A DNA stretch of 60,939 bases, counting the filler. It is 9 parts of 9 records of this genome, joined end to end, with 100 filler letters (N's around TTAATTAATTAA, not from the genome) between each part and the next. Parts side by side here need not be neighbours in the genome. Positions count along the whole stretch, not along the records: positions 55,030 to 60,939 come from SRR31156797_60966; 8 more parts are not named here. One strand, 5' to 3'. Below the pieces are notes generated by a model. The model saw nothing but the letters and a program-made list of their open reading frames with translations, had not been told where the DNA came from and ran no database searches. Positions 3,033 through 60,915 of this stretch are shown one piece after another. The number at the start of each line of letters is the position of its first letter. The stretch's first letter is position 1. Made by a program: the position numbers and the translations under genes.

Positions 3033-3803
3033 TCAATCCGCTGCCGGATTTAACCAGTCGTAAATGTATCCGGCTATTTCCTCCCACCCCGGTTCGGAAA
3101 GAACCCAGTGGGCATGATTGGAAAATTCCTTGTAAGTAGAAACGGATTCATATTTTTTTGCTACCTTACGGTTCACCGATGCCGGCGTGATATGGTCTTC
3201 CGAACCGGCCACAACCAAAACAGGACACGTAACCCTGGATGCATCCACCTTTGACGCCCCCCTGGAATCCAACAGCCAGAAGCCTATTTCAAAGGCAGCT
3301 CTCCCGGATTCATAAACAAATTTGTCATAAGCCGCTTTTTGTTCATCCGGCGGCAGCATGTTCAGCATTGAATAACAGGATTCCTCGAATTTTTGTCTCA
3401 TGGGTTTTTTCCAAAAATTCCACTTCGTCAGGATGCTCCAAAAACTCTTGATTACCGACGGAGTAAGAGCGGTGATACCGCTGGGCGAGGCAGGCGTCAG
3501 CAGAACAAGGCTTTGGGCCAGATCCCGGGCCCCCAAAATCTGGGCCAAAAGCCCGCCCATGGAATGACCCATCAGAATCGGTTTTTCATCAAGCGAGCGT
3601 ATTTCCTTTTCCAGATCTTCAGCATAGTCCAGCAGGCTGGCGGCGCCAAGTTCCGGCGGGGGCGAGTCCGCGGGATTCATGTCATGATGCCTTAAAGTCG
3701 GCCTCAGGCACTTGTACCCCTTTTCTTCAAAAAAATTCATGTAGTTTTCCCAATACCATCCGCCTCCCCACATACCGTGAATCATCATAATAACGCCCGA
3801 CAT
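3033..3803 (-). CDS. Alpha/beta hydrolase
   Basis: IHGMWGG oxyanion region, GHSMGG nucleophile elbow, GSEDH Asp and HAHW His. Confidence 0.9.
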   Translation of the reverse strand: MSGVIMMIHGMWGGGWYWENYMNFFEEKGYKCLRPTLRHHDMNPADSPPPELGAASLLDYAEDLEKEIRSLDEKPILMGHSMGGLLAQILGARDLAQSLVLLTPASPSGITALTPSVIKSFWSILTKWNFWKKPMRQKFEESCYSMLNMLPPDEQKAAYDKFVYESGRAAFEIGFWLLDSRGASKVDASRVTCPVLVVAGSEDHITPASVNRKVAKKYESVSTYKEFSNHAHWVLSEPGWEEIAGYIYDWLNPAAD

Positions 3804-3884
3804 TTATGACCCCCCTTTCGTCTTGAGGATTACCCAATACGTCCGGAAGCTTGCCAATATGCGAATTGAAGGCTTCCGAGACGA

Positions 3885-4778
3885 CTATGTTTGCTCCGCA
3901 TATTGATTTTTATCAGCATCCACGATATTTTTTGACACTCGAACGCCTATGTGAATCATCCAGAAAATTAAGCCGATATGTAGAACGTCATTGGCCGAAA
4001 ACCAAATGCCGCGCCTCCATAGGCTCTCCGTAAAACCGAATACCAGGTAAAGATAATACGTTCCGACCACCAGACCCAGATATATCCAGACCTTCATCAG
4101 CGACAAATCCAGCGCATGCCCGGATCTCCGATACCTGACAGCGTTATAAATAAACATGACAAGAAAACTTGGAATTACAAAAATAAGCATCAGTTCGAAA
4201 GAAATCATATACCGGTTTGGAATAAAGGCCCCGGTAAACACTATTATTGTGTACAAAAAACTATTTATCAGGGCGTAATACAAAAACGGTTTTCCGGTTT
4301 TTCCGCTTGTTCCATAGTGCGTTGTTGCTATAAACATGGCATTAATGCTTATTACTGAAAAAAACAGGTAAAAGATTTCCCACCAACTGGTCCAGGAACA
4401 GATTTCCCGCCCCGCGCATTTTATCTCATAACTGAAGGCCTGGTAGCTCGTTCCGGCCAACAGGGCGCCTACGCCCCAGAACAAAAGGCTTATCCCCCAC
4501 CATTTCAGGGCCTTGCCATTCATTTTTGTTCTTATAAATTTAATACCGATTCCAAGGCAAAGCAGGCCAAGAAAATACACAAAAAAGGTCGAACTCGGCG
4601 TCGACAGGGTAAAGTCAAGCGGCCCGAGTAGAATATTTACACAGGGGTGAACTGCACACCAGGTTTCGGGCGTCTGTTCGGGGCAGCAGTAAGGCAATGA
4701 TTGCACTCGGCTGCAGCCGGCAGTAGCAGTAAGAGTAGCAAGTGACGCAATAAACCGCTTCAAGATATCCCCACCCAA
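3885..4778 (-). CDS. Multi-pass membrane protein (DUF6962/CREST-like), possible lipoprotein signal
   Basis: About seven hydrophobic segments, C-terminal NDVLH motif, N-terminal KRFIASLATLTATAGC. Confidence 0.55.
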   Translation of the reverse strand: MGGDILKRFIASLATLTATAGCSRVQSLPYCCPEQTPETWCAVHPCVNILLGPLDFTLSTPSSTFFVYFLGLLCLGIGIKFIRTKMNGKALKWWGISLLFWGVGALLAGTSYQAFSYEIKCAGREICSWTSWWEIFYLFFSVISINAMFIATTHYGTSGKTGKPFLYYALINSFLYTIIVFTGAFIPNRYMISFELMLIFVIPSFLVMFIYNAVRYRRSGHALDLSLMKVWIYLGLVVGTYYLYLVFGFTESLWRRGIWFSANDVLHIGLIFWMIHIGVRVSKNIVDADKNQYAEQT

Positions 4779-5160: not shown

Positions 5161-5260
5161 NNNNNNNNNNNNNNNNNNNNNNNNNNNNNNNNNNNNNNNN
5201 NNNNTTAATTAATTAANNNNNNNNNNNNNNNNNNNNNNNNNNNNNNNNNNNNNNNNNNNN
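5161..5260. other. Artificial contig spacer
   Basis: N44-TTAATTAATTAA-N44, stop codons in all six frames. Confidence 0.99.
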
Positions 5261-6479: not shown

Positions 6480-7607
6480 ATGCCCAAGGCCTTACCACGA
6501 CTCATTACCGCCCTGCTGCTCTTCCTGCTTGGCGGGTTCATCCTGTTCATGCTCAACCAGATTGCGGGGCTGGCCCAGCTCTGCGCAGTCTACTTTCCGG
6601 CATCGCATGATTACGTGCTTTTCGGCCTGAGCGGACTGTTCCTGATCATTTGCCTTAGCCCGCTGGTTATTCATTTCTTCCGGCCCGGACCGCTGGTTAT
6701 GCCCGACGATCCCACTCCGGCCGAGCAAAAGGAATTCATCCGTAAACTGCGCAAAAGATTAAAATCCAACAAGTATATCCGCGAAGCCGTATTGCCTCTG
6801 CACACAACCGAGGACCTCGACATTGCCCTCGAGCATTTGGACCGTATATCTACCCAGAAAATGAAAACCGTGGCCTCGCGTATTTTCCTGTCCACGGCCA
6901 TCTCCCAGAACGGACAACTCGATTCCTTCATCGTACTCGGCACCCTGACCAAGCTGGTCTGGGATGTATCCAAGATATATAACCAACGCCCCTCTATGCG
7001 GGATATGGTTGCGGTATACGCCAATGTTGCGGGCACAGCTTTTTTTGCCAGCGCAGTGGAAGAGCTTGATATTCAGGCCCAGATCGAAGCAATCATGTCT
7101 CCGGTACTGGCTGGGTCAGCACTGGGTATGATTCCCGGTGCCAGCGGTTTGACCTCAATCGTCACCGCATCCATTTTGGACGGCTCAACCAATGCCTTCC
7201 TTGCCCTGCGAGTAGGTATCATCACCCGTGGCCATTTCAATTTCCATGCGGAGAAAAATTCTCCGGGCTATCGTCGTGCCGTCCTGCGCGAGGCCGCAGG
7301 CATGCTCCTGTCCATCGCCATGGGTTCCACCAAGACAATCACCACCGCCTACCTGAAAACCATCACCGGAGCGGCCGGGGAAAAGGCGGCCAGTGCTGCA
7401 AAAAAAGTTGTCGATTCCACAGACAAAGCATTTCAAGCCACCAGCAAAGCAGCCAAATATTCCGCCACACAGGTAGGAAAAGTAGCCCGTTTTGCCACCT
7501 TCAGAAGTGACAAGCCGGAAGAACCGGAGCCTGAACCGGAAACGATGAAAGAGAAAGCTGGCAAGAAACTTGGACGGGTTAGAAATATGTTCAGGCGAAA
7601 AAAATAA
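6480..7607 (+). CDS. DUF697 (YcjF-like) membrane protein
   Basis: Two N-terminal TMs, TAISQNGQLD and DGSTNAFLALRVG motifs. Confidence 0.75.
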   Translation: MPKALPRLITALLLFLLGGFILFMLNQIAGLAQLCAVYFPASHDYVLFGLSGLFLIICLSPLVIHFFRPGPLVMPDDPTPAEQKEFIRKLRKRLKSNKYIREAVLPLHTTEDLDIALEHLDRISTQKMKTVASRIFLSTAISQNGQLDSFIVLGTLTKLVWDVSKIYNQRPSMRDMVAVYANVAGTAFFASAVEELDIQAQIEAIMSPVLAGSALGMIPGASGLTSIVTASILDGSTNAFLALRVGIITRGHFNFHAEKNSPGYRRAVLREAAGMLLSIAMGSTKTITTAYLKTITGAAGEKAASAAKKVVDSTDKAFQATSKAAKYSATQVGKVARFATFRSDKPEEPEPEPETMKEKAGKKLGRVRNMFRRKK

Positions 7608-7643
7608 AAAAAGGGTGGACCGTAAATTCGGTCCACCCTTTTT
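7607..7643. terminator. Bidirectional intrinsic terminator
   Basis: A-tract GGGTGGACCG-taaatt-CGGTCCACCC T-tract between convergent genes. Confidence 0.85.
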
Positions 7644-7663
7644 ATTTAGCTTCTATTAAATTA

Positions 7664-8092
7664 TTACACATTATCCGCCACTGGCATGGGAAAGACAATG
7701 TCATACACCCAGTTGTAGACAAAGGCATAAACCAGAAAGAAAAGTGCAAAACCGATATCTGCGATCAGGGCATGCCAGAGCGTCAGATCCAGCCACCATG
7801 CAACAAAAGGTACGGTGAGGGTCAAAAGCGAAAGCTCAAAAAGGATAGCATGCAATGCACGCATCCATGTAGGGCGTACATTGACCGGACGGTTCAGGGC
7901 CACCAGCACTTTGTCAAAAACCAGATTATATAGATAGTTGCAGACCATGGCGGTCATGGAAATAGCAATACTCATGATCCCGATACGGCTTAAATCCTTA
8001 TCAAGTATCCACGAAGCCAGCGGGGTACAGGTGCAAAGTCCGATAATTTCGAATAACAGGGTATGCCTGATTCTGTCAGCAGTTGTTCTCAT
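7664..8092 (-). CDS. PACE family efflux transporter (AceI-like)
   Basis: Duplicated RIRHTLLFE / RALHAILFE and YNYLYNLVFD / YAFVYNWVYD motifs; likely start MRTTADR. Confidence 0.9.
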   Translation of the reverse strand: MRTTADRIRHTLLFEIIGLCTCTPLASWILDKDLSRIGIMSIAISMTAMVCNYLYNLVFDKVLVALNRPVNVRPTWMRALHAILFELSLLTLTVPFVAWWLDLTLWHALIADIGFALFFLVYAFVYNWVYDIVFPMPVADNV

Positions 8093-8359
8093 GAAGGTGA
8101 GAGTACTGCTGACCCGCTGTTGATTCAAGATGATTCTCTAAAATTATTTCCATATATATCAGAATGATACCAAACTATAACAATAGTTACTCCGCTAAAA
8201 CTGGGTATAGGCTGCCCGATTCACACAGGCTCTTTTCCAGATATGTTCAAGCTTTGCATTGTTTTTGGCACCCAAATTGAATAAACTGTTCACAGGTGTC
8301 AGAAAACACACATTTTTTACTTTTGAACTAAAACCGACTCAAACGGACAGCGCAAAATC

Positions 8360-9535
8360 ATGCAACAAGACGAACTGCAAAAACTGCGGGAATTATCAGC
8401 ATCAGTCCCCAAACAAAAAAATCTGGCCCTATTTTTCGGGCGCGCAGGCGGATACTTCATTGATAACGTTAAATATTTCTTTATCCATTGCGTGCAACAC
8501 AGACCGGAACTGCAATGTTTTTTCCTGTCCTTTGACAAAAAAGAAGCGGACCTGTTGAAACGACAGGGACTGCCCGCACTATGGATTAATGATACTGAAA
8601 CCCTTGCGCTTATGACCAAGGCTTCGCTGGTAATCAGTGACGATTTCAGCTGGAAGACTCAGGAGCAACTCTGGGCCCTGCTCAGTGAAGCGACCTCCAT
8701 CCAGCTCTGGCACGGCATCCCGCTCAAGGCCATAGGCTTCCCGGAAATCAACTCATCAGTGAACATGAACCCGGAAAAAGCCGAGCACCTTTCCTTTGCC
8801 TATTCCGGCTACGATGCAGTGCTCTCCACTTCACCCTACTTCACCAAGACCGCTTTCGGGCGCGCTTTCAAGGCCGGGGATTTTCTGGAACTGGGCTACC
8901 CGCGCAACGACGTGCTTCTGCGCCGTCCCGGCAAATTTGATATGATCAATGCCGACCGTGAGCTTTATGCTGAGATGGTTAAATTTCGTAAACAAGGCGG
9001 CAAGGTGGTCTTTTTCATGCCCACCTTCCGCGATCTGGGCGGCGGACCGTTTGAGGACGGGGCCATCGACCTCGGCAAACTTTCGCAGTTCTGTCAGCAG
9101 AACAACATCCTTTTTGTCTGCAAATTTCATCCGTACCTGAGCATAGGACAGGTCCAGATGCCGCCGAACATAGTGCTCATGAATCCCAAGAGTGACGCTT
9201 ATCCGCTGCTGTCACTCTGTGATGCACTGCTGACCGACTACTCATCCATTTATTTCGACTTCCTGCTTCTGGACCGGCCCATGATCTTCTACCCTTACGA
9301 TTTTGAGGATTATGTGACTAAGAACCGGGAACTTCTTTATGACTATGACGAGATGACTCCGGGCAGAAAAGTCAAAAATAAAGATGATCTCTATACCGCT
9401 TTTGAAGAGATCGTGATAAATAATATAGACGACTTTACGAAAAACCGGAAAAAACTAAGAGAACTTTCCTTCACCCACTGCGATGGAAAGGCCGCGCAAA
9501 GGCTGGGTGAACACATCATCGCCAACTATCTATAA
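8360..9535 (+). CDS. CDP-glycerol glycerophosphotransferase (TagB/TagF-like)
   Basis: [25 protein letters not shown] and [11 protein letters not shown] motifs. Confidence 0.9.
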
Positions 9536-11992: not shown

Positions 11993-12092
11993 NNNNNNNN
12001 NNNNNNNNNNNNNNNNNNNNNNNNNNNNNNNNNNNNTTAATTAATTAANNNNNNNNNNNNNNNNNNNNNNNNNNNNNNNNNNNNNNNNNNNN
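11993..12092. other. Artificial contig spacer
   Basis: N44-TTAATTAATTAA-N44. Confidence 0.99.
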
Positions 12093-19761: not shown

Positions 19762-19861
19762 NNNNNNNNNNNNNNNNNNNNNNNNNNNNNNNNNNNNNNN
19801 NNNNNTTAATTAATTAANNNNNNNNNNNNNNNNNNNNNNNNNNNNNNNNNNNNNNNNNNNN
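19762..19861. other. Artificial contig spacer
   Basis: N44-TTAATTAATTAA-N44. Confidence 0.99.
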
Positions 19862-29560: not shown

Positions 29561-29660
29561 NNNNNNNNNNNNNNNNNNNNNNNNNNNNNNNNNNNNNNNN
29601 NNNNTTAATTAATTAANNNNNNNNNNNNNNNNNNNNNNNNNNNNNNNNNNNNNNNNNNNN
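29561..29660. other. Artificial contig spacer
   Basis: N44-TTAATTAATTAA-N44. Confidence 0.99.
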
Positions 29661-35220: not shown

Positions 35221-35320
35221 NNNNNNNNNNNNNNNNNNNNNNNNNNNNNNNNNNNNNNNNNNNNTTAATTAATTAANNNNNNNNNNNNNNNNNNNNNNNN
35301 NNNNNNNNNNNNNNNNNNNN
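35221..35320. other. Artificial contig spacer
   Basis: N44-TTAATTAATTAA-N44. Confidence 0.99.
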
Positions 35321-41776: not shown

Positions 41777-41876
41777 NNNNNNNNNNNNNNNNNNNNNNNN
41801 NNNNNNNNNNNNNNNNNNNNTTAATTAATTAANNNNNNNNNNNNNNNNNNNNNNNNNNNNNNNNNNNNNNNNNNNN
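41777..41876. other. Artificial contig spacer
   Basis: N44-TTAATTAATTAA-N44. Confidence 0.99.
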
Positions 41877-47162: not shown

Positions 47163-47262
47163 NNNNNNNNNNNNNNNNNNNNNNNNNNNNNNNNNNNNNN
47201 NNNNNNTTAATTAATTAANNNNNNNNNNNNNNNNNNNNNNNNNNNNNNNNNNNNNNNNNNNN
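47163..47262. other. Artificial contig spacer
   Basis: N44-TTAATTAATTAA-N44. Confidence 0.99.
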
Positions 47263-54929: not shown

Positions 54930-55029
54930 NNNNNNNNNNNNNNNNNNNNNNNNNNNNNNNNNNNNNNNNNNNNTTAATTAATTAANNNNNNNNNNNNNNN
55001 NNNNNNNNNNNNNNNNNNNNNNNNNNNNN
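54930..55029. other. Artificial contig spacer
   Basis: N44-TTAATTAATTAA-N44. Confidence 0.99.
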
Positions 55030-55392: not shown

Positions 55393-56544
55393 TTGATTAA
55401 ATTGAGAAAATTTGTATCTCCGGAATTCATTTTTGGACCAGGGTCCCTGGAGACTGTAGGACAATATTCAAAGAATTTTGGTGCCAGGAAAGCCTTGGTT
55501 GTCAGTGATCCCGGGGTGGTGGCGTCGGGGTGGGCTGGACGGGTCTGTCAAATTTTGGATGGAGTTAAGGTGGCGTATGAATTGTTTTCCGAGGTTAGCC
55601 CCAACCCCAGGGTAGATGAGGTCATGTCCGGTGTTGACATGTATAAAACCAATGGATGTGATGTGATTGTTTCTATTGGTGGCGGAAGTCCGATTGATTG
55701 TGCCAAAGGCATTGGCATTGCCAGTTCAAATAATAAAAGCGTTCTTGATTTTGAAGGGGTTGATAATGTTGAAATTCCAGGGCCGCCTTTAATTTGTATT
55801 CCAACAACGGCTGGCGCTTCCGCAGATGTTTCTCAATTCGCAATTATTAATAATGTCGTCCAAAAGGTTAAAATCGCCATTATCAGTAAAAAGGTTGTCC
55901 CTGATGTCGCATTGATTGATCCTTCTACCACCACAACAATGGATCCATATTTGACAGCCTGCACAGGCATGGATGCACTATCTCATGCCATTGAGGCCTT
56001 TGCGTCGTCAGCCCATTCTCCGATTTTTGACTTACACGCCCTTGAGGCGATTCGTTTAATCAGATCGAGTCTAATTGGGGCAATCAATTCTCCCGATAAT
56101 ATTCAACTCCGAAATAAAATGATGCTGGGAAGCCTTGAGGCGGGTTTGGCTTTTTCCAATGCAAGTCTTGGTGCCGTCCATGCCATGGCCCATAGTTTGG
56201 GCGGTTTTTTGGATCTCCCCCATGGCGAATGCAATAGTATGTTGCTCGAGCATGTCATTTCCTTTAATTATGATGAGATCCCTGAACGATATGAGAAAAT
56301 AGGTCAGGCACTGGGTCTTTCCATGAAGAAAATGATCCCAAAGGATAGGAAGAAGATAATTCTGGATAGGATCAGAGAATTTAAAAATGCAACGGGAATT
56401 ACCAACACGTTAGGCGCTCGGGGGCTTCAAAAAAGTGATATCCCTGAACTTTCAAAAAAAGCAATGAATGATCCCTGCATGATAACAAATCCCCGGCGCC
56501 CGACCCTGAAAGATATTGAGGCCATTTATGAAAAAGCCCTCTGA
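55393..56544 (+). CDS. ercA: Iron-containing alcohol dehydrogenase-like regulatory protein (ErcA type)
   Basis: LRKFVSPEFIFG N-terminus, GGGS, PTTAG, DALSH, HAMAH, PHG; overlaps a downstream signalling gene. Confidence 0.8.
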   Translation: MIKLRKFVSPEFIFGPGSLETVGQYSKNFGARKALVVSDPGVVASGWAGRVCQILDGVKVAYELFSEVSPNPRVDEVMSGVDMYKTNGCDVIVSIGGGSPIDCAKGIGIASSNNKSVLDFEGVDNVEIPGPPLICIPTTAGASADVSQFAIINNVVQKVKIAIISKKVVPDVALIDPSTTTTMDPYLTACTGMDALSHAIEAFASSAHSPIFDLHALEAIRLIRSSLIGAINSPDNIQLRNKMMLGSLEAGLAFSNASLGAVHAMAHSLGGFLDLPHGECNSMLLEHVISFNYDEIPERYEKIGQALGLSMKKMIPKDRKKIILDRIREFKNATGITNTLGARGLQKSDIPELSKKAMNDPCMITNPRRPTLKDIEAIYEKAL

Positions 56545-58060
56545 TGACGAATTCAATCTGCAGTTTAATAAAATCATAGGGCTTGGAGAGACATCCACCA
56601 GAAAAAGTTACTACCCTGAATTACAGCAAAGAATATCAGAACTGGACCTGAAGAATTCAGAGTTACTAAAAGAAATTGAGACAAGAAAACAGGCCCAAAA
56701 AGAGTTGTCTAAAAGTGAAGCATTATACCGGACGCTCGCTGAAAATATCACTGAAGGCGTACTTATAAGCGCTTCAGGAAAACTTGTCTATGTCAATCAG
56801 GCGCTTGAATCCATATTGAGACGAAGAAAAAAAGAACTTATTGGCATGGAACTTTTTGAAATTTTACATAGGGATCACCATGACAATTTATACGATCTAA
56901 TTGAGAACCATCGAAATACCCGGTCCCCTGAAAAGTTCAGATCACTTTGTATCCGGGGAGATGATAAAAGAATTTGGCTGCGGGGAACCTATCAAATCAT
57001 TCAATGGCAGGGTGAAAAGGCTGGTTTGATTACGGCAAGGGATGTTACAGAACAGGTGGAAAAAGAGAAACTTGCCAATGAAATTCAGCAGGAAAATTTA
57101 TTGTTAAAATCTAAGAATTTACACCGGTATGGATTGGGACCCCTTGTGGGAACCAGTGAAAAAATGCAGGGTGTATATGAAAAAATTATTAAAGCCGCGG
57201 CCATAGAAGCCAATGTGGTTGTATATGGTGAATCCGGTACCGGCAAGGAGTTGGTGTCAAGGTCCATCCATGATTTGAGCAATAGAAATGAAAATCCGTA
57301 TATTGCTGTCAATTGCGGCGCTATACCGGAAAATCTTTTTGAAAGTGAGTTTTTCGGTCATAAAAAAGGGGCTTTTTCCGGTGCAAACATAGACAAAATA
57401 GGGTTCTTTGAAAGCGCAGCCCAAGGGACCCTGTTTATGGATGAAGTCGGAGAAATACCCCAAAGCCTTCAGGTTAAACTGCTCAGGGCCATTGATGGTG
57501 GTGGATACACCCCGGTTGGAAGCACCCAGACAAAAAAATCGGATGTGCGGATCATTGCTGCAACAAATCAGGATTTACAATCAATGACCGAAAAGGGGAT
57601 CATACGGGAGGACTTTTTCTTCAGAATTCATATTGTACCTATTCATCTGCCACCCTTAAAAGAGCGCAAAGAAGATATTCCCCTTTTAATTTATCACTTC
57701 GTTAAAAAAATGGGGGGGACAGAAAAGAATGTTTCCATTCCAGATGCCATTGTAAAAAAATTTCAAGAACATGACTGGCCCGGTAACGTTCGTGAACTGC
57801 AAAATGCTGTATCCCGATATCTTGCATTCAATACAATTGAGTTTTCAAAAGAAGAGGGTGATAGGATAGAAGGCCAAACAAGTTTTGGGGACCCCTCTTT
57901 AAAAAGAGCCTGTCTTAATGATCTTGTCAATGGCTATGAACGGCGGATTATCCAAAACGCATTATTTGAAACAAAGGGTAATATTTCAAAAGCCGCAGAC
58001 TTCCTGAAGATTGGGAGACGGTCTCTCCAAAGAAAAATTACACGGCTTGAAATTTATTAG
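56528..58060 (+). CDS. PAS-containing sigma54-dependent activator (AAA+ plus Fis HTH)
   Basis: GESGTGKE, GAFSGA, FMDEVGE, WPGNVREL, GNISKAADFLKI; PAS-like segment; no receiver domain. Confidence 0.92.
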   Translation: MKKPSDDEFNLQFNKIIGLGETSTRKSYYPELQQRISELDLKNSELLKEIETRKQAQKELSKSEALYRTLAENITEGVLISASGKLVYVNQALESILRRRKKELIGMELFEILHRDHHDNLYDLIENHRNTRSPEKFRSLCIRGDDKRIWLRGTYQIIQWQGEKAGLITARDVTEQVEKEKLANEIQQENLLLKSKNLHRYGLGPLVGTSEKMQGVYEKIIKAAAIEANVVVYGESGTGKELVSRSIHDLSNRNENPYIAVNCGAIPENLFESEFFGHKKGAFSGANIDKIGFFESAAQGTLFMDEVGEIPQSLQVKLLRAIDGGGYTPVGSTQTKKSDVRIIAATNQDLQSMTEKGIIREDFFFRIHIVPIHLPPLKERKEDIPLLIYHFVKKMGGTEKNVSIPDAIVKKFQEHDWPGNVRELQNAVSRYLAFNTIEFSKEEGDRIEGQTSFGDPSLKRACLNDLVNGYERRIIQNALFETKGNISKAADFLKIGRRSLQRKITRLEIY

Positions 58061-58262: not shown

Positions 58263-58278
58263 TGGCACCGAAGTTGCT
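58263..58278 (+). promoter_or_regulatory. sigma54 -24/-12 promoter
   Basis: TGGCACCGAAGTTGCT. Confidence 0.88.
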
Positions 58279-58334: not shown

Positions 58335-58688
58335 GTGAAAATTTTATTAGTCAATCTGGATGATAAGAATTCAGATGAATTGGGCCGTATTCTATCGGGA
58401 TGGGGAATGATCGTAACCCGTGCGGCTTCGGCTCAGCAGGCGGTTGAGTTGGTAAAGAAACAATTGTTTAAATTTGTCCTGATAGAATTATCTCTTCAGG
58501 ATTCCTGCTGGTTTGACGCCATCCCTAAATTGAAACTGTTTAATCCAGGCATCCGCATTCTGGTCATGACCGGGAACAGCACACCGGAATTGGAAAAAAA
58601 AGCCAGGGAATGCGGGATAGTTTTCTATGCGGGAAAACCCGTCCCCCTGGATCAATTAAAATTAATTATCAGCCAGTTAAGTGAATAA
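58335..58688 (+). CDS. Single-domain atypical response-regulator receiver
   Basis: KILLV, ILVMTG and KP receiver-fold motifs; phospho-acceptor position reads VLIELSLQD (Glu). Confidence 0.75.
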   Translation: MKILLVNLDDKNSDELGRILSGWGMIVTRAASAQQAVELVKKQLFKFVLIELSLQDSCWFDAIPKLKLFNPGIRILVMTGNSTPELEKKARECGIVFYAGKPVPLDQLKLIISQLSE

Positions 58689-58710: not shown

Positions 58711-60915
58711 ATGTTAAAAAAACTCAAATTCAACCAGCAGCTTTTGGTCATTGGGATTTCAGTAACCCTGATCCCCCTGATCATTGCTTTTGCCTTTGTA
58801 TTTAACCAGAATAAACATAAAACCCAACTGGCAAAGCAGGAAAGCATCAAAATGGCTGATGCAGACCTTCAGCACATTGTTGAAAGTATTTATACCCTTG
58901 CTAAAACCCAGCAGGAGGTGATCGAGAAAAATCTTGAAAATTCATTGAATGTTGCCGAAGATCTGCTGCTAAAAGCAGGGGGGATTCAATTTAGCCCTGA
59001 AGACCAGACATGGGATGCCGTCAATCAATATTCAAAAGCAATTGCTTCTGTGACACTTCCCAAAATGCTCATGGGAGAAACCTGGCTGGGCAAAATCAGC
59101 AATAAGAATCAGCCGGCCCCCCTGGTGGACGAGGTGATGAAATTAGTCGGAACAACCTGTACGGTGTTTCAATTGATGAATCCTGGCGGCGATATGCTGC
59201 GGGTTGCCACCAATGTAATTAAGAAAAACGGTCAGCGGGCCATTGGCAGCTATATCCCAAGTACCAATCCAGATGGTTCTGCCAATCCGGTTATTTCAAG
59301 TGTTAAACAGGGGCAAACCTATGTGGGAAGGGCCTATGTCGTAAACGGATGGTATATCACCGCCTATAAACCCCTTTATGATCAAAACAGGCAGCTTGTG
59401 GGCATGCTCTATGTCGGAATTCCCCAGGAAAGCACCACCACCCTTCGCAAGGTGGTTATGGATATGGTTATCGGTAAAACCGGATATGTTTATGTTCTGG
59501 ATAAAACCGGCAGTTACGTCATTTCCGAAAACGGCGAACAGGATGGGAAGAACATAATAGACAGCAGGGATGAGACCGGGCAGTACTTCATCAAAGCCTT
59601 AATTGGAAAGGCCCTAAGGCTGAAAGGCGGTATGACCGCAGACCATACCTATCAGTGGAAGGACACCAAAGATAATAGTGTTAAAACCAAAAAAGTTAAA
59701 ATGGCCTATTTTAAAAAATGGGACTGGATTATCAGCGCCGGCAGTTTTGAGGAAGAATTTATTGAATCCGCCCTCCTGATTGAGGAAAGTGCACGGAAAG
59801 GAAATATTGCCCTCGTGATCCTTATCGGCATCTCTGTCCTTGCCGCCATTTTTGTCTGGATTCTGGTGGCGCGACGTGTCATGAAACAACTTGGAGACGA
59901 TCCGTCTGAAATCGCCAGGATTGCGGACAGCATAGCCCGGGGAGATCTTACCGTTGAGTTCACCAGTGATAAAGAAATTACGGGTGTCTATGGCAATATG
60001 AAAGAAATGAGAGACAATTTGACCCGTATGTTCACTGATATCTCAGGAGGGGTCCAGACGCTTACATCCTCCTCCACTGAACTTTCAGCCGTTTCCCAGC
60101 AGATGGCGGCAGGGTCTGAGCAATCGTCCGAAAAAGCGAATAATGTGGCTTCAGCTGCCGAAGAGATGTCCACCAGTATGAACAGTGTGGCCGCGGCCAC
60201 CGAACAGACCACTGCCAACCTTCAGATGATTGTTGCTGCAGCAGAAGAGATGTCTGTGACGATTAATGAGATTGCTGAAAATACAGCCACGGGAAGTCAG
60301 ACCACGACTGACGCAGTTGAAAAAGCAGAACATATTTCCAGGAGAGTAAATGACTTGGGCAGGGCGGCTTTGGAAATTTCCAAGGTTACGGAGACCATTT
60401 CAGATATTTCAGCCCAGACAAATCTGCTGGCTCTTAATGCGACCATTGAAGCGGCAAGAGCAGGTGAGGCAGGTAAGGGGTTTGCCGTTGTTGCCGGGGA
60501 GATTAAGGCCCTTGCTCAGCAGACGGCCCAAGCGACCGGTGAAATTGGTTCAAAGATCGATGACGTTCAGTCCAGCACACAGGAGTCTGTCGCAGCCATT
60601 GGATCCATTGTGGAAATCATTAATGAAATAGATATCATTGTGACCTCTGTGGCAACCGCCATAGAGGAGCAATCGGCCACCACCCAGGAAATTTCCAGTA
60701 ACGTCAGCCAGGCTGCTGCAGGTGTTCAGGAAGTAAATGAAAATGTCAATCAGACATCTGTAGTGGCAGGAGAGGTTACAGAGGATGTTCACAACGTCAG
60801 TCAGGCTGCCGATGAAATAAATACAGGCAGTCTTCAGGTGAACTCAAGTGCCCTGGAATTGTCAACCCTGGCTGAAAATCTTAATGAAATGGTCAGTAGA
60901 TTTAAACTGAATTAA
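58711..60915 (+). CDS. Methyl-accepting chemotaxis protein with Cache sensor domains
   Basis: Two TMs, MLRVATNV...[19 protein letters not shown] Cache motifs, [27 protein letters not shown] signalling hairpin. Confidence 0.95.

Follow-up and report, generated by a model that had tools for sequence, protein, structure and literature searches.

A conserved N-terminal peptide as a probable ErcA-coupled input module of diverse signalling proteins in bacteria and archaea

The window analysed here (a stretch of 60,939 nucleotides made up of nine joined parts, filler included) encodes a sigma-54-dependent activator whose residues 1–65 probably act as a portable input module through which it is coupled to ErcA, an Fe-ADH-like regulatory protein encoded directly upstream; we assign this reading a probability of roughly 0.7. 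In bacterial as well as archaeal proteins, the motif IIGLGExSxRKSYYPELQ and the helix behind it constitute a module that is found only at N-termini. Many different signalling outputs are fused to it, and the start codon of the gene lies nearly always in the last codons of ercA. Because motif genes nearly always overlap ercA, the peptide most likely serves to plug signalling proteins into the ErcA sensor. From the gene linkage and published work on Pseudomonas putida, we infer that it docks on ErcA. The features concerned are as follows.

55393..56544, + strand, ercA, Fe-ADH-like regulatory protein of 383 aa with a TTG start (NCBIfam NF041833 and Pfam)
56518..56544, + strand, coupling junction within the 3' end of ercA (GAGG, activator ATG, and ercA stop)
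56528..58060, + strand, sigma-54-dependent activator of 510 aa (peptide, helix, PAS, AAA+ with a GAFSGA loop, and HTH_8)
56570..56626, + strand, core motif, residues 15–33, KIIGLGETSTRKSYYPELQ (family consensus IIGLGExSxRKSYYPELQ)
56615..56722, + strand, long helix, residues 30–65, linking the motif to the PAS domain (AlphaFold2; weak leucine-zipper matches in PDB)
56723..57052, + strand, PAS domain, residues 66–175 (PF00989, 5e-12; PF13426, 9e-12)
57143..57646, + strand, sigma-54 interaction AAA+ domain, residues 206–373 (PF00158, 213.9 bits)
57938..58045, + strand, Fis-type HTH_8 DNA-binding domain, residues 471–506 (PF02954, 1.7e-10)
58263..58278, + strand, sigma-54 (-24/-12) promoter-like site, TGGCACCGAAGTTGCT (the sole match with 0 mismatches in the window)
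58335..58688, + strand, CheY-like single-domain response regulator (PF00072), the first gene behind the sigma-54 site
58711..60915, + strand, Cache_3-Cache_2 methyl-accepting chemotaxis protein of 734 aa (PF17201, 303.6 bits; PF00015)

The ercA product belongs to the ErcA family, scoring 627.7 bits against NF041833 over residues 3–383 (cutoff, 550). It has the Pfam domains Fe-ADH and ADH_Fe_C, the GGGS NAD motif, and the metal ligands D194, H198, H263, and H277, and these four residues and G96–S99 are invariant across 22 ErcA sequences. The N-terminus, MIKLRKFVSPEFIFG, is of the ErcA type. All 22 ErcAs compared (22 of 22) contain the segment (L)RKFVxPEF without variation, and it is missing from two Fe-ADHs without a downstream sensor gene. 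In the closest solved structure, 3OWO, the alignment begins at residue 14. The signalling gene lies directly downstream in the same direction with an overlap of 17 nt, i.e. the window has the ErcA–ErcS-type gene arrangement. GAGG occupies 56518–56521 (positions -10 to -7), the activator ATG lies at 56528, and the ercA stop codon TGA is located at 56542–56544, such that the overlap is dual-coded as YEKAL-stop and MKKPSD. The ATG at 56528 opens a 510-aa ORF with the first residues MKKPSDDEFNLQFNKIIGLGETSTRKSYYPELQQRISELDLKN; it was preferred to an earlier alternative in the ORF listing (TTG at 56516) because 80 of 81 aligned junctions have an ATG at exactly the corresponding position. Across these junctions, the ercA stop falls at +15 to +17 in 79 of 81, and G, A, G, and G are found at positions -10 to -7 in 95, 95, 78, and 60%, respectively. 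The dual coding of the first 17 nt holds across the family (YE[E/K]AL-stop versus MKKPS[D/E]), and these nucleotides are nearly invariant as DNA. As they share nucleotides with the ercA stop region, residues 1–6 (MKKPSD) are under a dual-coding constraint, at least in part.

With a Sigma54_activat AAA+ domain, a GAFTGA-type loop (GAFSGA), and a C-terminal Fis-type HTH, the activator is a sigma-54 enhancer-binding protein (EBP) of the NtrC/NifA class, and it scores under the cutoff of every named NCBIfam equivalog (best, PrdR; 311 versus 795). The earlier note, made from the sequence alone, had described an N-terminal peptide followed by a coiled coil, lying outside the PAS and AAA+ domains and carrying no name. 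The sequence agrees with this description: the N-terminus, MKKPSDDEFNLQFNKIIGLGETSTRKSYYPELQQRISEL, precedes the PAS domain, and a whole-protein Pfam scan assigned no domain to residues 1–65. When searched alone against Pfam and NCBIfam, residues 1–65 matched no family above noise and gave only bZIP-type coiled-coil matches (E ~0.01). The motif therefore has no name in either collection. A literature text search for the string KSYYPEL returned no match, and an ESM Atlas search with residues 1–45 of motif protein P0202 led to unnamed clusters (best score, 0.85). The AlphaFold2 model, built with a 22-sequence alignment, contains a confident helix at residues 30–64 (block pLDDT, 88–96) preceded by residues 1–29 at low confidence (56–60, and <50 for residues 22–26); the most conserved stretch, modelled alone, is thus a low-confidence loop in front of the confident helix. 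A PDB profile search with the peptide profile returned coiled-coil chains only, over positions 28–64, with leucine zippers matching weakly (E 0.004). The predicted helix at residues 30–65 is probably a coiled coil, and the reading of the earlier note is reasonable on this point.

The functional core of the peptide is the stretch of residues 15–33. Invariant positions in the 22 sequences are I16, I17, G18, L19, G20, E21, S23, K26, S27, Y28, Y29, P30, E31, L32, and Q33. The core is conserved at the protein level, as its amino-acid identity is 0.92 compared with a third-codon-position identity of 0.42, and all synonymous codons are used. These values bear directly on a different explanation, in which the conservation resides in the nucleotides (the ercA overlap or an RNA element for translational coupling) and not in a functional peptide. 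Such an explanation fits the nearly invariant, dual-coded first 17 nt and the GAGG at -10 to -7, but the overlap stops at codon 6, whereas the core motif consists of codons 15–33, in which every synonymous codon family is used. It is contradicted for the core motif, is valid for residues 1–6 only, and as an account of the peptide has a negligible probability. The codons of the core also show that S27 is encoded by AGY only and S23 nearly always by TCN; therefore, both serines have been conserved across the whole family. Together with the hydroxyl-rich character of the invariant residues, this could suggest that the peptide is a substrate or pseudo-substrate of ErcA, with S23, S27, Y28, or Y29 entering the alcohol site and free alcohols or NAD(H) competing for or altering the occupancy, the change being the signal. 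The retained catalytic site of ErcA and a weak match (52 bits) of ErcA to the daptide dehydrogenase model NF041822, a peptide-acting Fe-ADH relative, point in the same direction. However, the idea is a speculation from composition, and the model described in PMC12551699 locates the contact at the N-terminal 14 residues of ErcA rather than at the active site; we consider it very improbable.

The peptide motif occurs far beyond chance. A 44-position profile searched against 1.84 billion proteins (counted as cluster representatives) found 1258 representatives at E<=1e-3 and 628 at E<=1e-10, and a search of a 5.8-billion-protein set gave 351 proteins at E<=1e-3 among 505 candidates (best, 3e-20). 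In 145 of the 150 best matches, the profile match begins within residues 1–4; in the other five, it begins at residues 6–27. The loci come from Desulfobulbales and relatives, Methanoregula, Methanospirillum, Methanobacterium, Treponema, Pectinatus, Thermoguttaceae, Bacteroidales, Geobacteraceae, and Thermoflexales. In Acetoanaerobium, an ErcA-like gene (538 bits) overlaps the gene for an HD-GYP-type protein, and the N-terminus of this protein matches the profile with 55.9 bits; in a tblastn search of a plasmid collection with the peptide, Acetoanaerobium and one chance match were the only results. The Desulfovibrio vulgaris genes DVU2394–2396 are a possible further example. In the literature on this organism, DVU2396 is termed 'Adh2', and DVU2394 an adh regulator. 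No pseudomonad ErcA was found by tblastn in the plasmid collection, no pseudomonad names were present among the matches listed for a search that used P0202, a motif protein with a PAS domain, as its seed, and no pseudomonad was present among the 14 matches of a search for longer proteins. Pseudomonas ErcS was likewise absent from the matches listed for the 5.8-billion-protein set and from the 80 genomic loci described below. Plasmid-borne pairs of Fe-ADH and kinase genes in Tsukamurella and Mycolicibacterium were examined as candidates and rejected: the Fe-ADHs score 462–463 bits, under the ErcA cutoff, and the kinase N-termini, which resemble the motif by eye (..LTGLRSGKSSYYPQ..), reach no more than 5.5 and 0.4 bits with profile A2.

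The linkage to ercA was assessed by a scan of genome contigs, in which 505 stretches matched, 495 were confirmed, and the best 80 of the 495 were examined. As all 80 loci were found through the exact octapeptide KSYYPELQ, divergent and unlinked forms of the motif are under-sampled in this set. Among these best 80 of 495 loci, from bacteria and archaea, ercA is located directly upstream of and overlaps the motif gene in 78: it is whole in 68, cut by a contig end in 6, and interrupted in 4 (three with frame breaks and one split by an IS605 OrfB-type insertion). The 68 full-length genes comprise 63 ORFs of at least 370 aa and five open frames that align over residues 1–383 without an ATG, GTG, or TTG near the 5' end. 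The two exceptions contain ercA remnants, namely L075, with only ~10 last ercA codons upstream and no ErcA within 5 kb, and L053, a decayed remnant of both ercA and the motif gene. Across loci, the ercA frame ends 17 nt into the motif gene, and all 21 upstream proteins tested passed the NF041833 cutoff of 550 (578.6–639.3). An Fe-ADH gene immediately upstream, which the earlier note had expected, is thus the rule in this sample.

The outputs behind the peptide were surveyed in 375 motif-bearing proteins with lengths of 250 aa or more, pooled as a redundant and non-random set. This set contains 166 histidine kinases with REC, 150 histidine kinases, 21 SpoIIE, 7 sigma-54 AAA+, 6 RsbW-like, 4 GGDEF+HD-GYP, 3 HD-GYP, and 2 GGDEF+EAL proteins, one DUF835 protein, one PAS-only protein, and 14 unassigned proteins. 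The profile recovers a large family in which no fewer than nine types of output follow the N-terminal peptide as fusions, in line with the proposal that the outputs are interchangeable; that the motif couples them to ErcA is supported by the outputs and the adjacency, with direct binding as the putative basis. In an ErcA tree (58 rows), the window pairs with the other sigma-54 locus, L002 (97*), and this pair joins the hybrid kinase locus L013 (96*), indicating a change of output with ErcA and the peptide retained. Of 56 motif-bearing kinases, none reached E<=1e-95 against NF041832, the model for the C-terminal region of NahK/ErcS (best seen, P0025, with 188.8 bits against a cutoff of 400), and the window activator, having no kinase domains, lies outside the NahK/ErcS hybrid kinases (NF041832/NF041831). 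No Fe-ADH Pfam domain was listed for the 14 long matches, which is weak evidence against fused ErcA-sensor proteins.

Many family members carry PAS, GAF, or PocR domains, and ErcA retains its GGGS motif and four metal ligands. ErcA might accordingly act only as an enzyme, with PAS or GAF domains sensing a small molecule (an aldehyde or NADH) that it produces or consumes and the peptide being a conserved cap or dimerisation element that makes no contact with ErcA. In P. putida, YiaY-H281A is inactive (PMC12551699), and this need for a catalytic residue is also compatible with a diffusible product sensed by PAS. We regard this explanation as unlikely. The shortest motif kinases (280–295 aa) consist of the peptide, the helix, and the kinase core alone, with no ligand-binding or other sensor domain, and the peptide is essentially confined to ercA neighbours (78 of the best 80 of 495 loci), whatever the remaining protein. 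Furthermore, a diffusible product would not require the conserved 17-nt overlap, nor the cis arrangement and the N-terminal 14 residues of YiaY that are needed in P. putida. According to PMC12551699, the overlapping genes yiaY (ercA) and yiaZ (ercS) are functional only in cis, their products co-sediment and form a complex, the first 14 residues of YiaY contact the YiaZ N terminus in an AlphaFold3 model, and signalling is abolished when YiaY is without these residues. The YiaZ PAS domain spans residues 40–164 (PMC12551699), and in many motif proteins the PAS domain starts at the same place. Through ErcA family membership, gene overlap, and this domain spacing, the motif would by analogy be linked to the studied Pseudomonas pair.

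In the window, the likely target of the activator, as predicted from sequence, is the sigma-54 site at 58263. A scan allowing up to two mismatches found 13 sites versus 17 expected, i.e. no overall enrichment, so that the weight of this evidence comes only from the single perfect site and its conservation: a perfect site is present at the equivalent place in the syntenic locus L002, which also has a 734-aa counterpart of the chemotaxis protein, the second gene behind the site. In the coupled-module reading, ErcA and the motif protein would be produced in a fixed proportion through translational coupling, which is suggested by the fact that the ercA coding sequence contains the Shine–Dalgarno-like GAGG together with the ATG and the initial five codons. 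The peptide would then bind ErcA, with the conserved N-terminal LRKFVxPEF segment as the contact according to the published modelling; our own complex prediction of ErcA with residues 1–65, run without prepared alignments, gave a score of 0.13 against a mark of 0.34, which bears on binding in neither direction. ErcA, having retained its NAD and metal sites, may sense an alcohol or aldehyde and/or NAD(H), and its state would be transmitted along the helix to the output. For the PAS-AAA+-HTH output of the window, the signal would turn on sigma-54-dependent transcription from 58263, driving the CheY-like regulator and the Cache-type chemoreceptor.

A broader reading, to which we give an even chance, is that the peptide is a universal adaptor by which one enzyme-derived cytoplasmic receptor, ErcA, drives almost any prokaryotic output in Bacteria and Archaea. 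The outputs would include several histidine kinase classes, sigma-54 activators, c-di-GMP enzymes, PP2C phosphatases, and RsbW-like kinases; the pair would be assembled in a fixed stoichiometry via the conserved 17-nt gene overlap; and, in the boldest form, the ErcA active site would be filled by one of the conserved Ser or Tyr residues, acting as a pseudo-substrate. If the adaptor reading is true, ErcA and the peptide represent a widespread, transplantable two-gene cassette for alcohol or redox sensing and not a Pseudomonas peculiarity. In Pseudomonas, ErcA/ErcS (YiaY/YiaZ) is used as a biosensor for alcohols and as a means of engineering the metabolism of methanol and alcohols; PMC12551699 and PMC12997753 state that its mechanism is unresolved and describe its distribution as restricted. 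The system is widespread in anaerobic bacteria and methanogenic archaea, and a discrete, nearly invariant receiver motif of ~35 residues provides a defined target for mutagenesis and structural work. Since this receiver has already been transplanted by nature onto many outputs, the module may be reusable in sensor building. The peptide is also a candidate for a new Pfam/NCBIfam domain entry, which would improve the annotation of hundreds of 'PAS domain S-box' and 'hybrid sensor kinase' genes.

Among known systems, ErcA–ErcS (YiaY–YiaZ; PA1991–PA1992/PP_2682–PP_2683) shares with the window an Fe-ADH-like gene located directly upstream of, and overlapping, a gene for a cytoplasmic signalling protein, and the upstream protein of the window passes the ErcA equivalog cutoff. 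The partner is a hybrid kinase in Pseudomonas and a sigma-54 activator in the window, the outputs are the ped/exa genes and a putative chemotaxis operon, respectively, and the host of the window resembles an anaerobic Desulfobacterales-type organism (nearest relatives, L002 and L013) rather than a pseudomonad. The YiaY/YiaZ pair is described in PMC12551699 as pseudomonad-restricted, with close homologues in only 20 pseudomonad genomes, whereas the peptide module identified here extends across many phyla and archaea. An analogy to NosP–NahK was drawn for YiaY/PP_2683 in a review (PMC12997753). In NosP–NahK and H-NOX–kinase pairs, a separately encoded cytoplasmic sensor likewise regulates a neighbouring hybrid kinase by interacting with it directly; the NosP sensor is a haem protein in place of the Fe-ADH fold of ErcA, and the motif kinases found here do not reach the NahK/ErcS model. 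To our knowledge, these pairs have no shared N-terminal peptide. In NifL–NifA and PspA–PspF, an AAA+ enhancer-binding protein is set by a co-encoded protein and not by phosphorylation. The window activator is similarly an EBP with a co-encoded partner, but NifL and PspA act on GAF or AAA+ domains, whereas the candidate contact in the window is an N-terminal peptide of ~35 residues that is also found on non-EBP outputs. In TorT–TorS and LuxP–LuxQ, the signalling protein receives its input from a docked ligand-binding protein whose fold is of metabolic or transport origin. These systems are periplasmic and dock on folded sensor domains, whereas both partners of the ErcA system are cytoplasmic and the putative receiver is a short linear motif followed by a helix.

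The sigma-54 activator gene of the window encodes, from an ATG at 56528, a 510-aa protein whose N-terminus is MKKPSDDEFNLQFNKIIGLGETSTRKSYYPELQQRISELDLKN. The features of this region are as follows:

55393-56544: ercA, TTG start, NCBIfam equivalog "alcohol dehydrogenase-like regulatory protein ErcA" (627.7 bits; cutoff 550)
56528-58060: sigma-54 activator gene; Pfam domains PAS (residues 66-175), sigma-54 AAA+ (206-373), AAA lid (378-435) and HTH_8 (471-506)
58263-58278: perfect sigma-54 -24/-12 site TGGCACCGAAGTTGCT, 57 nt before the CheY-like gene
58335-58688: CheY-like gene
58711-60915: Cache_3-Cache_2 chemoreceptor gene (734 aa)

Residues 1-65 contain no Pfam domain in the scan of the whole protein, and, when scanned alone against Pfam and NCBIfam, gave coiled-coil noise and matched no further model. 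The position of the ercA stop codon shows that ercA enters the activator gene for 17 nt. The earlier note's description of this N-terminus, as a peptide outside PAS and AAA+, was correct in all details. The window also contains 16 runs of exactly 44 N, forming eight pairs with 12 bases between the members of each pair (5161-5260, 11993-12092, 19762-19861, 29561-29660, 35221-35320, 41777-41876, 47163-47262 and 54930-55029); the last pair, ~360 nt upstream of ercA, may conceal the ercA promoter region.

A word-seeded search with activator residues 1-60 yielded 505 candidates (280-893 aa), 351 of which matched at E<=1e-3, and the peptide was located at the very start of the protein in 120 of 120 among the matches listed. 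A 44-position profile (A2), built from the window and 17 loci, matched 1258 of 1.84 billion cluster representatives at E<=1e-3 and 628 at E<=1e-10. Among the best 150 of these 1258, the match starts within the first four residues in 145 and at residues 6-27 in the remaining five, apparently start-codon miscalls. The consensus is M-K-K-P-S-[DE], 8-11 variable residues and IIGLGExSxRKSYYPELQQR[IL]xELE, with I16, I17, G18, L19, G20, E21, S23, K26, S27, Y28, Y29, P30, E31, L32 and Q33 invariant in 22 diverse sequences. Downstream, the motif continues into one of two elements: a long helix, which is the form present in the window, or a PAS N-cap (ELERFRALLDQ...), with PAS starting at approximately residue 40.

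Linkage to ercA was analysed by scanning one genome per species (185,579 species) for KSYYPELQ; 505 stretches matched, 495 were confirmed, and the best 80 of the 495, ranked by similarity and all carrying the exact octapeptide, were used. Their titles name Desulfobulbales and relatives, Methanoregula, Methanospirillum, Methanobacterium, Treponema, Pectinatus, Thermoguttaceae, Bacteroidales, Geobacteraceae and Thermoflexales. An ercA frame lies immediately upstream of the motif gene in all 80 loci. It is a full-length reading frame in 68 (63 ORFs of at least 370 aa and five open frames), cut by a contig end in six (L025, L029, L055, L059, L032 and L054), broken in three (L047, L057 and L069, the last across a 10-N gap) and split by an IS605 OrfB-type insertion in one (L071). 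Both genes are a decayed remnant in L053, and in L075 ercA is reduced to approximately its last 10 codons, with no ErcA within 5 kb; leaving out these two, ercA is directly upstream in 78 of 80. All 21 upstream proteins tested exceeded the ErcA cutoff (578.6-639.3 bits). An independent case was found in a 2.6-Mb Acetoanaerobium record from a plasmid collection, where an ErcA-like gene (538 bits) overlaps the gene for a 490-aa HD-GYP-type protein whose N-terminus scores 55.9 bits on A2. Two Fe-ADHs from Cupriavidus and Thioclava, best matched in NCBIfam by L-threonine dehydrogenase rather than ErcA, have neither an ErcA-type N-terminus nor a sensor gene downstream.

Some loci have individual peculiarities. 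In Pectinatus brassicae (L071, 2037-5017), the ~2-kb insertion carries an IS605 OrfB/TnpB-type gene (3567-4676), and the final 61 codons of ErcA retain their overlap with a PAS-GGDEF-EAL gene that bears the motif and is intact. The five open ercA frames (L006 3211, L020 3866, L023 660, L058 629 and L073 505) can be aligned throughout residues 1-383, yet ATG, GTG and TTG are all absent close to their 5' ends, and the alignment opens at ATT, GTC or TTA; TTG is the start codon in the window (55393) and GTG in others, and weak or unusual start codons may be frequent in ercA genes. Two actinobacterial plasmid loci from Tsukamurella and Mycolicibacterium (L082, 2962-5468; L083, 2908-5549) encode an ErcA-like Fe-ADH below the cutoff (462-463 bits) and then a histidine kinase whose N-terminus has a visual resemblance to the motif (..GKSSYYPQ..) that the scores do not bear out statistically (5.5 and 0.4 bits). 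One of these two loci adjoins NDMA-dependent methanol dehydrogenase and mycofactocin genes.

The gene junction is itself conserved. Of 81 junctions, 80 have the start ATG at one fixed position and 79 have the ercA stop at +15..+17 (TGA 71, TAA 4 and TAG 4), and G-A-G-G occupies -10..-7 in 95, 95, 78 and 60% of junctions, respectively. The same nucleotides thus serve the ErcA C-terminus (..IYE[E/K]AL*), a Shine-Dalgarno-like site, the start codon and MKKPS[D/E]. This packing argues for translational coupling, by which ErcA and the motif protein would be produced at a fixed stoichiometry. Because the overlap is dual coding, the first six peptide residues are at least partly its by-product. The core motif (codons 15-33) lies outside the overlap; there, amino-acid identity is 0.92 versus 0.42 at third positions, with every synonymous codon used, indicating selection as protein, although the scan pattern fixed the last eight core residues in this 80-locus sample. 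In profile-based sets these eight residues seldom vary; a loose regular expression failed to match 12 of 345 proteins. Ser27 (56606-56608 in the window) is encoded by AGY codons only (80/80 loci) and Ser23 (56594-56596) by TCN in 79/80, a lack of crossing between codon families that fits long uninterrupted selection on both.

The outputs behind the peptide are diverse.

Output types of pooled motif-bearing proteins of at least 250 aa (n=375; redundant, non-random; local seeds and Pfam checks)
HK+REC: 166
HK (HisKA, HisKA_2, HisKA_3 and HWE types): 150
SpoIIE/PP2C: 21
sigma-54 AAA+: 7
RsbW-like HATPase_c_2: 6
GGDEF+HD-GYP: 4
HD-GYP: 3
GGDEF+EAL: 2
DUF835: 1
PAS-only: 1
not assigned: 14

The sigma-54 architecture of the window is therefore a minority variant. 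In a 58-row ErcA tree, the window and L002, the locus of its nearest relative, form a pair (97*), which joins L013 (96*), where ErcA is partnered by a PAS hybrid kinase; thus, at least one output swap occurred while ErcA and the peptide were kept. Otherwise, tree and output type agree, with three changes under coarse output labels. Two loci titled Desulfopila aestuarii (L045 and L062) fall in separate, well-supported ErcA clades and have partner kinases of 573 and 451 aa, suggesting that one organism may hold several ErcA-peptide pairs, which raises the issue of how cross-talk between them would be prevented. L002 repeats the gene order of the window, i.e. ercA, motif-bearing sigma-54 activator, perfect sigma-54 site, small ORF and 734-aa Cache MCP, the part from the site onwards lying at 6764-9405. 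The ErcA signal in the window probably feeds chemotaxis, not alcohol catabolism.

AlphaFold2 modelling of residues 1-65 with a 22-sequence alignment gave a confident helix at 30-64 and low confidence for residues 1-29 (block pLDDT 56-60), the invariant GLGExSxRK forming a loop with pLDDT <50 at residues 22-26. A conserved loop of low confidence would be expected of a segment folding on a partner, but is not proof. A profile search of the PDB found the motif in no solved structure. The closest solved relative of ErcA, Zymomonas ADH2 (3OWO), aligns from residue 14; the first 13 ErcA residues, with the conserved segment (L)RKFVxPEF (invariant R5, K6, F7, V8, P10 and E11), are specific to the ErcA type.

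The earlier note had proposed that the peptide is a portable module coupling ErcA to interchangeable outputs; the finding is real, and the predicted coupling is well supported by comparative genomics (78/80 linkage and many outputs). Literature searches for ErcA returned Pseudomonas-centred or unrelated work and none on the motif, of which no description was found, and a text search for KSYYPEL had no match. What appears to be new is the receiver as a discrete N-terminal module that is unnamed and nearly invariant, the fixed 17-nt overlap of its gene with ercA, and its spread over bacterial phyla and methanogenic archaea with many output types, including the sigma-54 activator of the window.

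In Pseudomonas putida, according to Menasalvas et al. 2025 (PMC12551699) and a 2026 review (PMC12997753), yiaY (= ercA) overlaps yiaZ (= ercS, PP_2683), complementation works in cis only and requires balanced levels, and YiaY and YiaZ co-sediment. An AlphaFold3 prediction in these sources has the first 14 residues of YiaY contacting the N terminus of YiaZ, whose residues 40-164 are a PAS domain, and signalling is abolished by loss of these 14 residues or by H281 mutation. Close homologues are reported in PMC12551699 from 20 pseudomonad genomes only and from no other genera. Of 56 motif kinases, none falls in the NCBIfam NahK/ErcS C-terminal family, so pseudomonad ErcS may be linked to the canonical motif family only via ErcA and a divergent receiver. 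Pseudomonas ErcA/ErcS is the same kind of system, in which an Fe-ADH-like accessory sensor is paired with a signalling protein.
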